This document shows positions 15,710 to 21,665 of a stretch of 41,121 bases of DNA, in pieces (within the stretch, counting starts at the first letter, position 1; each line of letters starts with the position of its first letter). The stretch covers positions 71,764-112,884 of the forward strand of contig JAUYIE010000005.1 of the NCBI GenBank assembly GCA_030688365.1. Direction: 5' to 3'. The position numbers were made by a program, and so were the translations under genes. The DNA is from a bacterium. GTDB taxonomy: Bacteria > Patescibacteriota > Patescibacteriia > JACQRZ01. The notes under the pieces are model-generated. The model saw only the letters and a program-made list of their open reading frames with translations. It had not been told where the DNA came from and did not search any database.

Positions 15710-16818
15710 AGCTTCACTCTATCAATCACATTGATAAGATTACGCGCCTGGATGTTCCAAGAAAAATCACGTAACACTCTTTCTTTACCGTATCGTCCCA
15801 ATACATGTGCATACTCTGGATCATCAAACAATCGCACAATCGCCTGTGAAATAGACGATACTTCTCCTTGTCGCACAACAATACCACTCTGACCATCTAT
15901 CACCGCCTCCTCCACGCCCCCTGTTGCGGTTGCGATGACAGGTAGTGCAAATGCATTTGCTTCCAAATAAACAATACCAAACCCTTCCACATCTCCTGCG
16001 ATATCCACAGGAGTCATCACAAATACGTCGGCCTGACCATACCATGCCCGTACTTCCTGATCAGGAAGTGCCCCCATAAATCGTACAGAAGTTTCCAGTC
16101 CCAATTCTTTCACCAGTGAATGTAATGTTTGTTGATACGGTCCGTCTCCAACAATCACATAGTGCGTATCAGGGTATTTTTTTAAAACTTCGGGAAGTGC
16201 TTGGATGACATACTCATGTCCTTTGCGAGGAACGAGCCGGCACACAGTCAGCAATGTATGTCCTGTCTTATATTGTGTACTCTGTGACGATGTAGCCGTT
16301 GGAGTATTCACTGGGCAAGGGTAGACATATGAGATACGCGACGTAGATACATCCAATGACTCCAATGCGTTTGCCGTGTAATGACTATTGACGATAACAG
16401 CTGATGCTCGCGACAAAATAGATTTCATCAACCAACGTTTTCGTGTAGATTTCTGGTGCACGATATCCATACCATGACAAGAGACAACGTATGGCAATTT
16501 CATAAAAAATGAGAGGATCCATACCGCGGTTCCTACTGGTAAAATCTGACCGACGATGACAACATCAGGTTTTTGAGTCTTGATCACACGCAATAAATTT
16601 ATTATTAAAACCACCCACGCAGGTCTAAAAACACGCGACAAAAATGGCAAGCGGACGATTGGATATGAGGTAGACATTTCTTGTACTCCCGCCGGTAACG
16701 GTGGAGCCATCACAACAAAATCAGAAGATCCAATCGCATGTGCTAACTTCATCCAATAATATGAAACGCCACCCACGGATGGGAAAAAATCAAACGTTAT
16801 GAGGAGAGTTTTTTTCAT
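15706..16818 (-). CDS. glycosyltransferase family 4 (PimB-like GT-B)
   Basis: Start MKKTLLITFDFFPSVGG (ATG 16818); CRLVPRKG, IVGDGP, EGFGIVYLEA. ATGA overlap with the next gene. Confidence 0.92.
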   Translation of the reverse strand: MKKTLLITFDFFPSVGGVSYYWMKLAHAIGSSDFVVMAPPLPAGVQEMSTSYPIVRLPFLSRVFRPAWVVLIINLLRVIKTQKPDVVIVGQILPVGTAVWILSFFMKLPYVVSCHGMDIVHQKSTRKRWLMKSILSRASAVIVNSHYTANALESLDVSTSRISYVYPCPVNTPTATSSQSTQYKTGHTLLTVCRLVPRKGHEYVIQALPEVLKKYPDTHYVIVGDGPYQQTLHSLVKELGLETSVRFMGALPDQEVRAWYGQADVFVMTPVDIAGDVEGFGIVYLEANAFALPVIATATGGVEEAVIDGQSGIVVRQGEVSSISQAIVRLFDDPEYAHVLGRYGKERVLRDFSWNIQARNLINVIDRVKL

Positions 16819-18400: not shown

Positions 18401-18865
18401 TTAACGCTTTGAAAATTGCGGTGCGCGACGTGCGCGAAGCAATCCCGGCTTTTTTCTCTCTTTCACACGCGGATCTCGAGTCAAAAATCCTTCAGATCGA
18501 AGTGTTTTTCTAAAATCAGGGTTATATTCCAAAAGTGCGCGTGAAATACCGTGTCGTACTGCTTGAGATTGCCCGTGAATACCGCCACCTTGAACTTTGA
18601 CTGCCACAGCCATGATTTCCTTTGTACTGGTTATATCCAACGGCGCGTTAACAAATGACTGCATTTCAAATGTGGGAAAATATATTGCAAGTTCCTTACC
18701 GTTTATACTGATGTCTCCATGGGATCCTCGCTGTAAACGGACACGCGCTACTGCTGATTTTCTACGACCGACAGCAGTATATACATCACCGGCCATCACA
18801 GAAACCGCCGAATCATTTTCTTCGGTGGCAACTTTTTTAACTGTTTTTTTCTTTGCCGTTGGCAT
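18401..18865 (-). CDS. rpsI: 30S ribosomal protein S9
   Basis: AVGRRKSAVARV, GGGIHGQ, LTRDPRVKERKKPG..PQFSKR. Confidence 0.98.
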   Translation of the reverse strand: MPTAKKKTVKKVATEENDSAVSVMAGDVYTAVGRRKSAVARVRLQRGSHGDISINGKELAIYFPTFEMQSFVNAPLDITSTKEIMAVAVKVQGGGIHGQSQAVRHGISRALLEYNPDFRKTLRSEGFLTRDPRVKERKKPGLLRARRAPQFSKR

Positions 18866-18874
18866 ATCGTAAAA

Positions 18875-19246
18875 TTATACTTCAAGTGTAAGACGTTTTA
18901 ACATTGAGTTCCGCAATTTAGTCCTTGGTAACATACGACTGATAGCCATTTGCAATACTTGCGTTGGATTACGTCGTACTACTGCTGCCATATTTTCCGT
19001 TTTCAAACCACCAGGATGCCATGAGTGATGATGATACAGTTTGTCATTCATCTTTTTCCCCGTCACTTTGATCTTTCCTGCGTTAATTATTTTTACAAAA
19101 TCTCCCTCGTCAAGATGCATCTCAAACGTAGGTTTGTGTTTACCACGAAGCAACACGGCGACGCGTGAAGCAAGACGACCGAGGACTTGTCCTTCAGCGT
19201 CAATCACGTGTATTTTTCGTATCGTATTTTTTCTTGAAGGAATCAT
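18875..19246 (-). CDS. rplM: 50S ribosomal protein L13
   Basis: [39 protein letters not shown]. Confidence 0.97.
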
Positions 19247-19248
19247 AT

Positions 19249-19599
19249 TTATACAAATTCAATGTGCGCCATTTGAGCACCGTCGCCCTCGCGCGCACCT
19301 GTTTTGGTAATACGCGTATACCCACCAGCACGTTCCTTATATCGTGGACCGAGCACCTCTAACAATTTTTTCACTGCATTTGGCATGGAGACATATCGCA
19401 TGAGTTGACGACGCGCAGCAAGATCATTGGGACGTGATTTTGTCACCAAACGTTCAACATATGATCGAATAACCTTTGCTTTTGCTTCTGTCGTCTTCAT
19501 TTTTTCGTGTAATATAAGTTGCGCTGCCATGGTTTTGAGCATTGCAGTACGGGGCGCCTTTTTGCGATCTAAAATTTTCGTCTTATTTCGGTGTCTCAT
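19249..19599 (-). CDS. rplQ: 50S ribosomal protein L17
   Basis: [32 protein letters not shown]. Confidence 0.98.
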
Positions 19600-19608
19600 A
19601 ATGTGGCG

Positions 19609-19637
19609 ATATTAACATGCTTTACACAGGTTGTCCA
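19609..19637 (-). promoter_or_regulatory. internal promoter for rplQ-rplM-rpsI, near-leaderless
   Basis: TGGACA-17 nt-TAATAT with TGn extension, 9 nt before the rplQ ATG. Confidence 0.5.
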
Positions 19638-19641
19638 GTCA

Positions 19642-20505
19642 TTACTCGTCTTCGTGCTTTTTTGGACGACCACGCTTTTTTTTGCCATCTTCATCATCTA
19701 CATCTGCCTCTTCTGTCTTCTCTTCCTGCTCAATAATCTCTGGATTTGGCATTTCAAAAGTAGATTGTAGCGCCTCAACACTTTCTTCCGGATCTTCAGG
19801 TAGATCAGTGCGTGCCACTCCTGGATTGAGAATCATCTTAAACTGGCTAATCAAAACTTTACAGCTTTGTTCCATTGCATCTTGTGCAGTTATACTACCA
19901 TCCGTTTCTATGGTCAATATGATACGATCAAAGTTCGTCATCTGACCCACACGAGCGTTTTCCACATGCAACGCAACGTTGCGTACGGGGGTAAACGTCG
20001 CATCAATCAAAATAGTCCCCACTTCAGGTTTTTCTCCTTCATGCATTTCAGTAGAAAAATATCCGTGTCCTTTGCGCACGGTAAGATCCATCTCAAGTTG
20101 CGCATTTTTATTTGTTAATGTGCAAATGTGAACATCAGGTGTAGAGACCTCCACTTCATGAGTCCCTTCAATGTCCGCACCAGTAACTGCTTTTTCACCT
20201 TTTGCATGCAAAGTGATTTTCACCGGTTCATCGGTGTGTACATTAAACTTCAAACGTTTCAAGTTGAGAATAATGTCAACAACATCTTCTTTGACGTATG
20301 GCAATGTTGAAAATTCGTGGTCGGCTCCTTTGATCTTCGCAGCGATGACAGCGCCACCAGACAATGAAGAAAGAAGGACACGACGTAGAGCGTTGCCAAT
20401 AGTAAGACCATAGCCGGAGTACAAGGGCTCTATCGCAACAATCATCTCATTGTCTTTACTGCCTGGCTTATAATCAACGCGTGTAGGCAATAAAATATGT
20501 TCCAT
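19642..20505 (-). CDS. rpoA: RNA polymerase alpha subunit lacking the canonical alpha-CTD; acidic tail ending in an AT-hook
   Basis: IEPLYSGYGLTIGNALRRVLLSS, HEFSTL..VKEDV, IDATFTPV, ARVGQMTNFDRIILTIETDGS; position rpsD-rpoA-rplQ; ends GKKKRGRPKKHEDE. Confidence 0.97.
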   Translation of the reverse strand: MEHILLPTRVDYKPGSKDNEMIVAIEPLYSGYGLTIGNALRRVLLSSLSGGAVIAAKIKGADHEFSTLPYVKEDVVDIILNLKRLKFNVHTDEPVKITLHAKGEKAVTGADIEGTHEVEVSTPDVHICTLTNKNAQLEMDLTVRKGHGYFSTEMHEGEKPEVGTILIDATFTPVRNVALHVENARVGQMTNFDRIILTIETDGSITAQDAMEQSCKVLISQFKMILNPGVARTDLPEDPEESVEALQSTFEMPNPEIIEQEEKTEEADVDDEDGKKKRGRPKKHEDE

Positions 20506-20525
20506 ACAAAAACGTTATAAGTAAA

Positions 20526-21161
20526 TTATCGTGAATAAAATTCAATAATTGATTTCATATCAAAAAGACCTTGTACCGTTTCTTCAGTCTTTGGAGCATC
20601 AACTACTTTTGCTGAATATGTTCCTGGCTCTGTCACCAACCAACTTGGTAGATTCTTTTCTGAAAGTTTAGGAAGCAGTTCCATGAAATAACTGTATTTC
20701 TCACTGCGCGGTTTGATGGTAATAACACTACCGGGCTTAACAAAGTAGGAAGGAATATTCACCTTTTTACCATCTACAAGGAAATACCCATGACCCACAA
20801 ATTGACGTGCCTGTGCATGGGAAGTAGCCCATCCGAGTCGGTAAATAACATTATCAAGACGCATTTCTAAAAACTGCACCATAATATCCGCTGTGTTACC
20901 CACTTTACTGTTGGCACGGGTGAAATAGTTGGCAAACTGTGTTTCAGAAACGCCATAAAACTGTTTTGCCTTTTGTTTTTCACGCAACTGGATACCATAG
21001 CCAGTAAGACGTGGCTTTGAATTTTTTGCACCTGCCTGGCCTGGAGGATAATTTCGACGAACTATTGCACACTTTGTAGTATAGCAACGATCCCCTTTTA
21101 TGAAGAGTTTCATGCCTGCTCGGCGACACATTCTACATTTTGCTCCAAGTACTTTTGCCAT
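20526..21161 (-). CDS. rpsD: 30S ribosomal protein S4 (Cys4 zinc-binding type)
   Basis: CRMCRR..GDRC..KC, YGIQLREKQK, LEMRLDNVIYRLG, IIEFYSR. Confidence 0.98.
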   Translation of the reverse strand: MAKVLGAKCRMCRRAGMKLFIKGDRCYTTKCAIVRRNYPPGQAGAKNSKPRLTGYGIQLREKQKAKQFYGVSETQFANYFTRANSKVGNTADIMVQFLEMRLDNVIYRLGWATSHAQARQFVGHGYFLVDGKKVNIPSYFVKPGSVITIKPRSEKYSYFMELLPKLSEKNLPSWLVTEPGTYSAKVVDAPKTEETVQGLFDMKSIIEFYSR

Positions 21162-21167
21162 ATTATA

Positions 21168-21665
21168 TTATACCCTTCTTACTTTCTTAGGGCGACATCC
21201 GTTATGAGGAATCGGTGTCACATCTTTAATAGAAATAATATTCAAATCATTTGCATGCATTGCACGAATCGCTCCTTCACGCCCTGAACCGACCCCGCGA
21301 ACAAATACTTGCACATCAACCATACCATACGGCTTGAGACGTTCTGCCGCTGCTTTTACAATCACCGATGCAGCATAAGGAGTAGATTTTTTTGGACCTT
21401 TAAAACCACATGCACCAGCCGAGGATGTTGCGACCACATTTCCGTTTAAATCGCAAAACGTAACAATAGTGTTGTTGTAGGTTGCTTGTATATGCGCTTG
21501 ACCTGTTGCTACTTGATGCACCACCTTCTTTTTCTTACTCTTACGTTTTGTACTTGATACTTTATCAGATTTTTCTGATTTTACGGTTGTAGCAGAAACA
21601 TCCTCACTTTTTGATTCAGTGGGCATACCTGCCAGTATGGATTCTGTTGTTTCTTCGTCATTCAT
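21168..21665 (-). CDS. rpsK: 30S ribosomal protein S11 with N-terminal extension
   Basis: AHIQATYNNTIVT, GFKGPKKSTPYAA, DVTPIPHNGCRP. Confidence 0.98.
   Translation of the reverse strand: MNDEETTESILAGMPTESKSEDVSATTVKSEKSDKVSSTKRKSKKKKVVHQVATGQAHIQATYNNTIVTFCDLNGNVVATSSAGACGFKGPKKSTPYAASVIVKAAAERLKPYGMVDVQVFVRGVGSGREGAIRAMHANDLNIISIKDVTPIPHNGCRPKKVRRV

Follow-up and report, generated by a model that had tools for sequence, protein, structure and literature searches.

The RNA polymerase alpha subunit encoded by rpoA in a 41,121-nucleotide stretch of a Patescibacteriota genome (hereafter the window; assembly GCA_030688365.1, contig JAUYIE010000005.1, positions 71,764 to 112,884) lacks the folded C-terminal domain (alpha-CTD), which appears to have been replaced in evolution by an acidic tether with one AT-hook (KKRGRPKK) at its extreme C-terminus. 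The alpha-CTD is a textbook part of bacterial RNA polymerase, which reads UP elements, docks class I activators and targets the minor groove of AT-rich DNA. AT-hooks are short DNA-gripping peptides, best known from animal chromatin proteins and defined by an R-G-R-P core with lysine or arginine on both sides. DNA tethering through the hook is the mechanism best supported by the data, and we assign it a probability of about 0.55.

The rpoA gene (19642..20505, minus strand) encodes 287 amino acids followed by a TAA stop codon, and was delimited by the list of open reading frames (ORFs) together with matches to TIGR02027, PF01000 and PF01193. The TIGR02027 (rpoA) score is 242.1 bits, against a cut-off of 227.8, and the aligned part covers only positions 4-226 of the 298 in the model. 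The alpha N-terminal domain (NTD), with its dimerisation and insert domains, comprises residues 1-228 (19822..20505, minus strand) and holds the matches to PF01193 (75.9 bits, residues 26-222) and PF01000 (99.5 bits, residues 57-172). It is followed on the same strand by an acidic linker of 46 residues (229-274; 19684..19821), in which 18 Asp or Glu residues stand against two Lys or Arg, by the AT-hook KKKRGRPKK (residues 275-283; 19657..19683), and by the last four residues, HEDE, with the stop codon (19642..19656). The protein thus ends in ...LISQFKMILNPGVARTDLPEDPEESVEALQSTFEMPNPEIIEQEEKTEEADVDDEDGKKKRGRPKKHEDE, directly before TAA. This layout, with a length of 287 amino acids, the basic motif at 19657-19683 and a gap of 42 nt before rplQ, is exactly the one described in the earlier note on this DNA.

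The tail is predicted to be intrinsically disordered. In an AlphaFold2 model built with 120 homologues, the predicted local distance difference test score (pLDDT) is mostly above 90 in the NTD, whose last helix spans residues 207-226, while residues 234-274 fall below 50 and show no secondary structure. KKKRGRPKK fits the R-G-R-P core with Lys/Arg flanks, and AT_hook (PF02178) is the sole Pfam match in the tail (16.6 bits, E=0.0065), aligning residues 275-286 with model positions 1-12 of 13. Together with conservation among homologues, this match defines the hook. HMGA-like domains, such as those of CarD and HMGA1a, combine multiple AT-hooks with a highly acidic flank and are intrinsically disordered; the window protein has the acidic region and the predicted disorder, with one hook per chain, which would amount to two per alpha2 enzyme.

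An isolated RGRP could be a product of chance, because three of the 2853 ORFs of at least 60 amino acids in this genome contain one. For RpoA, such an origin is excluded by the conservation of RGRP across homologues. The other two are a 95-amino-acid ORF that looks spurious and an open frame of 869 amino acids located outside the window (G000:C13:8917-11526, plus strand), which shows KRGRGRPPKD near its N-terminus and has no Pfam family at E<=0.01.

The alpha-CTD is absent from both the gene and the assembled genome. The alpha-CTD family PF03118 gives no match in the RpoA protein even at E<=10, in agreement with the earlier statement that the domain is gone, and none at E<=10 when all six frames of the assembly were searched (30 contigs with a total of 844,435 bp, 41.4% G+C, 91.1% complete). 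The same six-frame approach located a single PF01000 locus, so that there is one rpoA and no second copy. Hence, neither a stand-alone CTD nor a second rpoA, two possibilities raised in the earlier note, exists in the assembled genome. The rpoA of the window is the only one of this Patescibacteria genome, and a functional one.

Nor is the CTD-less, hook-tipped RpoA an artefact. A Logan contig from run X1, possibly the source sample, covers 19200-20600 with 0 differences, and another sample in that study (X2) yielded a contig with 0 differences over 19553-19727, a segment that includes the hook, the stop codon and the gap. The strongest argument is recurrence, since the build of acidic tail plus hook is found in more than 100 independent assemblies.

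The conservation of the tail was analysed in the best 120 matches among 5.8 billion proteins. These homologues, labelled Uhrbacteria or Patescibacteria, have 219-306 amino acids and contain PF01000 and PF01193 only; when they were rescanned at E<=0.05, PF03118 was found in 0 of 120. RGRP is present in the last 45 residues of 107 of them, and [KR]GRP[KR] appears in the tail of 109 when KGRPK is counted. The remaining 11 consist of eight motif-less basic tails and three classified as other, two of which resemble fragments. In the alignment, K276, K277, R278, G279, R280, P281 and K283 are conserved in at least 90% of the sequences, and no column of the linker reaches a 50% consensus. Among the 109 hook-bearing homologues, the linker ranges from 34 to 60 amino acids (median 40), with a median Asp plus Glu content of 40% and a net charge between -20 and -3 (median -14). 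Its mean pairwise identity is 0.19, versus 0.67 for the NTD, and in 108 of the 109 the GRP core is at a distance of 2-6 residues from the C-terminus. As far as these alignments reveal, only the length and the negative charge of the linker are kept.

Within the family to which the window belongs, all 15 recovered RpoAs exhibit KK[R/K]GRP[K/R]K. The corresponding codons are far from uniform: the genes of 17 relatives draw on the full set of four Gly and four Pro codons and on five Arg codons, while the eight hook residues are kept. Since the amino acids are fixed and the third positions scrambled, selection acts on the hook peptide and not on DNA near the rplQ start. This pattern of substitution shows that purifying selection at the protein level maintains the hook throughout a clade of family rank. 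Conservation of RGRP, which the earlier note had proposed as a test of its reading, is therefore borne out by the closest homologues, by the whole of the family and by synonymous codon turnover. Judged from sequence comparison, the replacement module is real, ancient at the family level and under selection.

To define how far this architecture extends, 301 genomes of the phylum were scanned with PF03118 at E<=1e-5. The domain is present in 255 of them (one, G194, is flagged as unpublished), mostly in open frames of about 305-345 amino acids, which correspond to full-length RpoAs. For the class of the window, RpoA was collected from 43 genomes (G000-G040 except G009, in which none was found, plus G086, G135 and G263), and in 0 of the 43 does RpoA carry an alpha-CTD; as read from this set, the loss of the CTD from RpoA is class-wide. 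The hook is found in 17 of these proteins, namely the 15 of the window's own family and those of G029 and G035. The 26 hook-less ones include 12 with lysine-rich tails, five with weakly basic tails and nine that are acidic-only or tail-less. Co-occurrence of CTD loss with RGRP, which the earlier note had proposed to test, is seen throughout the family (15/15), but in the class 26 of 43 CTD-less RpoAs have no hook, which is thus no general answer to the loss of the CTD. Among the matches listed, a broad sample and not the nearest sequences, the named hook-bearing records include bins labelled Veblenbacteria, Kuenenbacteria and Parcubacteria BM507, and the close homologues bear the database name Candidatus Uhrbacteria; we take all these groups to be placed in GTDB class ABY1.

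Several variants of the alpha C-terminus were observed along the way. In one Patescibacteria family (represented by L008, L009 and L010, from G075, G100 and G047), PF03118 at E<=1e-5 is found in 0 of 15. The RpoAs of this family have 309-336 amino acids and end in a divergent helix-hairpin-helix-like CTD, and because this segment is kept, a protein negative for the hidden Markov model (HMM) is not always CTD-less. In some Patescibacteria (L016, L019, L024, L027, L029 and L041), RpoAs of 237-251 amino acids end directly after the NTD, with no tail. The genomes G086, G135 and G263, which belong to the same class as the window and were CTD-positive in the phylum scan, encode tail-less RpoAs in open frames of 243-264 amino acids.

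In the CTD-less class the alpha-CTD fold is retained only by free proteins, at L127 260-1663 (minus strand; G086:C10), L126 739-1212 (plus strand; G135:C4), L004 1426-1956 (minus strand; G034:C2), L005, L002 and L003. In one of these proteins, of 467 amino acids, RNA_pol_A_CTD (75.2 bits) is fused with Sigma70 region 4 (PF04545, 54.8 bits). Small proteins (154-177 amino acids) with the CTD at the C-terminus also occur, and one of 302 amino acids holds the CTD in the middle of the protein. No free alpha-CTD protein is found in the window's own genome. This distribution suggests that, in some lineages, the functions of the CTD passed to proteins acting in trans, and that in others the hook took over.

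The nearest 150 representatives at 50% identity comprise 84 proteins with a CTD, 25 with a basic tail, four with a hook and 37 with other or garbled ends. An NTD tree of 126 rows was built with FastTree, in which every sixth of the 120 close homologues was used and 45 of the 150 representatives were dropped for having truncated or frame-garbled tails or for being fusions of more than 400 amino acids. The window RpoA falls in a 17-row clade in which every member bears a hook (100% local support), nested in a 34-row group of hook-bearing and basic-tailed proteins without any CTD (support 82). By parsimony, the hook label changes six times on this tree, with at least two changes forced by well-supported branches, and the CTD label changes at least four times; the deep branches are weak. 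Given these label changes, the CTD seems to have been lost, and basic tails gained, on several occasions within the phylum, and the hook probably has more than one origin.

How might such a tail work? RNA polymerase carries two alpha subunits, so each enzyme would bear two AT-hooks, which would hang from its upstream face on flexible anionic leashes. These hooks would enter the minor groove of AT-rich DNA, found in this genome mostly between genes (A+T is 63% in intergenic regions versus 59% genome-wide), and the tail would thereby give the polymerase extra affinity for upstream or promoter-proximal DNA. The hook would partly substitute for the DNA binding of the alpha-CTD, but not for its role in contacting activators. 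As for the acidic leash, it may serve as a spacer repelled from DNA, and by analogy with HMGA proteins it might fold back on the hook and so lower non-specific sticking. The damping linker suggested in the earlier note, which would act as a DNA mimic, is a reasonable but hypothetical idea, by analogy only with the acidic tail of HMGA2, which has been reported to bind its own AT-hooks (PMC4482583). Furthermore, since the tails of the class come in two flavours behind the acidic segment, hook and lysine-rich, like those of a known family of polymerase-bound factors, the tail can be read as a DNA tether of the CarD/HMGA type built into alpha. The fullest form of this proposal is offered only tentatively, at somewhat less than even odds: an acidic leash and an AT-hook built into the core polymerase in place of the alpha-CTD, with two nine-residue minor-groove hooks, instead of a folded domain, that read upstream promoter DNA or park the enzyme on AT-rich intergenic DNA, would make alpha the first core polymerase subunit with an AT-hook and would give upstream promoter contact in a minimal form.

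Several observations weigh against a tethering hook. A lone AT-hook is a weak DNA binder compared to multi-hook HMGA proteins. The score of 16.6 bits for AT_hook in the window protein lies narrowly below the Pfam gathering cut-off of 17.4, and the model at E<=0.05 is reported for only eight of the 120 homologues; it has just 13 positions, and the filters of HMMER drop most matches this short. For this reason, the motif was counted directly. The hook is not required for a working CTD-less polymerase, as 26 of the 43 class RpoAs do without it and nine of them without any basic tail. In addition, tail type shows no link with local G+C content, with hook-bearing loci at 42-55% G+C and not more AT-rich than the others.

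The promoter scans bear on the reading in the earlier note, in which the hook may replace the folded UP-element reader, and lend it no clear support. From 799 ORF-based genes, 323 upstream gaps of at least 60 nt were collected, the start sites being predicted and not measured. Pairs of sigma-70-like -35 and -10 elements have a median of 7.3 bits in the sense orientation versus 5.3 in the antisense one, which indicates that real promoters are being sampled. In these 323 gaps with predicted starts, no positioned AT-rich block appears upstream of -35 (A+T of 0.59-0.72, intergenic mean 0.63), and neither runs of five or six A/T nor A5/T5 tracts upstream of the -35 hexamer give a clear positioned signal. 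An A5 tract within 45 nt upstream is found in 37 of 134 candidate promoters; the figure for the adjoining interval farther upstream is 30 of 134, and that for antisense controls is eight of 49. The 6-mer AAAAAA is enriched upstream of -35 (32 observed versus 14.9 expected) but is not positioned. Nor does the candidate 16S promoter (TTGACA-17-TAGTAT), immediately ahead of position 16572 of G000:C28, show an evident UP-like block.

Two other features came out of these scans. An AAATATA-like word, often cgtAAATATAatg, is located about 21-30 nt upstream of -35, with 13 matches in the bin among 177 candidates; examples among the high-scoring promoter candidates of this genome (G000) lie at C6 near 108727, C24 near 83347, C27 near 3347 and C26 near 23940. 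The word might mark a site for a factor, or one that the hook prefers. The 16S rRNA match itself (G000:C28:16572-18987, L011) spans 2416 nt against a model of 1533 positions, so the gene carries large insertions.

On another reading, the tail would be a polycationic tip of a generic kind, borne on an anionic leash, with an electrostatic and non-specific affinity for any nucleic acid or for the nucleoid. No preference for AT-rich or UP-like DNA would be involved, and RGRP would be one workable flavour among others. Motif-less lysine-rich tails in sister lineages of the class (12 basic and five weakly basic of 43) point in this direction, as do the basic hook-less tails of 25 of the 150 representatives at 50% identity, the lack of a positioned AT signal in candidate promoters and the independence of tail type from G+C; the HMGA-like and H1-like domains of CarD orthologues have likewise been reported to be exchangeable (PMC2919716). 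What makes this account unlikely, although it is the strongest of the competitors, is the precision of the motif. In spite of saturated synonymous change, at least 90% of the 120 homologues keep G279, P281 and the two arginines, whereas a compositional constraint alone looks like the linker and would not fix exact hook residues. The occurrence of RGRP on separate branches of the NTD tree (at least two forced changes, six by parsimony) suggests repeated selection for the motif itself.

The tail may also not act on DNA at all. It could bind RNA or an acidic-surfaced protein (a transcription factor, NusA or the ribosome), or pair with the linker of the other alpha to regulate the assembly or clustering of the polymerase. 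The conserved charge of the acidic linker and the absence of a DNA target signal in the promoter scans would agree with such a role, and the acidic tail of HMGA2, by binding its own AT-hooks, is reported to drive self-association (PMC4482583). Still, we regard this possibility as improbable: no candidate partner was identified, the motif matches the DNA-binding AT-hook core, AT_hook is the best Pfam match of the tail, and the bacterial precedents WhiB7 (PMC8786299) and CarD (PMC2919716) are described as acting on DNA. Far less credible than either is the view that the tail is a neutral low-complexity leftover of CTD erosion in a reduced genome, or the result of an assembly or annotation truncation. 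The charged low-complexity extensions on the neighbouring ribosomal proteins S11 and S9 could be cited in its favour, together with the reported association of CTD loss with genome reduction in some endosymbionts (PMC8321222). A leftover is at odds with purifying selection on the hook at the amino-acid level, and a truncation with the identical build in more than 100 independent assemblies, the 0 differences in the Logan contigs of two samples (one possibly the source), the clean stop, the absence of a CTD in any frame and a 42-nt gap that leaves no room for one. DNA tethering through the hook remains, on balance, the preferred reading.

The surroundings of rpoA are those expected for this gene. 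On the minus strand of the window, the order is infA-rpsM-rpsK-rpsD-rpoA-rplQ-rplM-rpsI, which is canonical and was assigned through NCBIfam equivalogs, all above their cut-offs. The upstream gene rpsD (ribosomal protein S4; 20526..21161, minus strand) was assigned in this way, and downstream lies rplQ (L17; 19249..19599, minus strand; TIGR00059, 122 bits). It is separated from rpoA by the 42-nt spacer (19600..19641), in which neither inspection of the sequence nor the PF03118 search revealed a CTD remnant. Two other products of this cluster hold charged additions. S11 (21168-21665, minus strand) has an N-terminal extension of about 44 residues, acidic and then KRKSKKKK, and S9 (18401-18865, minus strand) has a lysine-rich and acidic N-terminal extension of about 27 residues ahead of the conserved domain. 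From these extensions, charged disordered additions may be a general habit of the lineage.

In full-text literature searches, no paper was found that reports an AT-hook in RpoA or in the polymerase of the candidate phyla radiation (CPR). The loss of the CTD in Parcubacteria is known in passing, and its conserved replacement by an acidic leash plus an AT-hook appears to be undescribed in the literature searched. What is new is the surprising combination of a known subunit with a known motif, which would imply that a short disordered peptide can suffice for contact with upstream DNA, and that an AT-hook, a motif described as rare in bacteria (PMC8786299), has become a constant component of the core transcription apparatus in a groundwater lineage that is abundant. 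Activator-dependent recruitment via alpha is probably absent in these organisms, in keeping with a report that the CPR clade lacks full-length CRP/FNR regulators (PMC12531629). The tail module could also serve as a minimal, portable part for promoter tethering.

Compared to canonical RpoA, the window protein conserves the NTD, the operon position, a flexible linker in front of the C-terminal element for DNA contact and the presence of two copies per enzyme; moreover, AT-hooks and the alpha-CTD share the AT-rich minor groove as their target. The differences are nevertheless clear. The helix-hairpin-helix fold is missing, the linker, strongly acidic, has about three times the length, and the DNA-contacting element is a nine-residue peptide, so the surfaces for class I activators and NusA are missing as well. 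Loss of the alpha-CTD has been reported for Hodgkinia, Tremblaya and Euglena plastids, with a one-sentence mention of Parcubacteria (PMC8321222). The main text of the source cited there for Parcubacteria (PMC4508563) does not contain the words 'polymerase', 'RpoA' or 'alpha', although its supplements might hold the observation. Those endosymbiont and plastid subunits resemble the window RpoA in having lost the CTD and kept the NTD; they differ in that the account given in PMC8321222 is one of plain erosion, with no replacement module described.

Among proteins that carry AT-hooks, HMGA1 and HMGA2 are similar in their disorder, in the RGRP core with Lys/Arg flanks and in an acidic segment able to interact with the hooks. 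Unlike the RpoA tail, they are free chromatin proteins with three hooks, and their acidic part is C-terminal to them. In mycobacteria, the sigma-bound activator WhiB7 also brings a C-terminal AT-hook into the initiation complex, where it has been reported to contact promoter DNA (PMC8786299). However, WhiB7 is an inducible Fe-S regulator located on sigma region 4 and not a core subunit, and it lacks an acidic leash.

The closest parallel is CarD from Myxococcus xanthus. The N-domain of this factor (PF02559) binds the RNA polymerase beta subunit, and its HMGA-like C-domain binds DNA through a contiguous acidic region and four AT-hooks (PMC2919716). In 2010, CarD and its Stigmatella orthologue were stated to hold the only known prokaryotic HMGA-like domains, and the Anaeromyxobacter counterpart is reported to hold an exchangeable lysine-rich H1-like domain in their place (PMC2919716). 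The resemblance is therefore twofold: a part attached to the polymerase precedes a very acidic stretch and RGRP hooks, and a lysine-rich version exists in a related species, similar to the alternation of hook and lysine-rich tails among the RpoAs of the class. Whereas CarD is a separate factor that sits on beta and carries four hooks, the window RpoA holds a single hook within the core alpha subunit itself.

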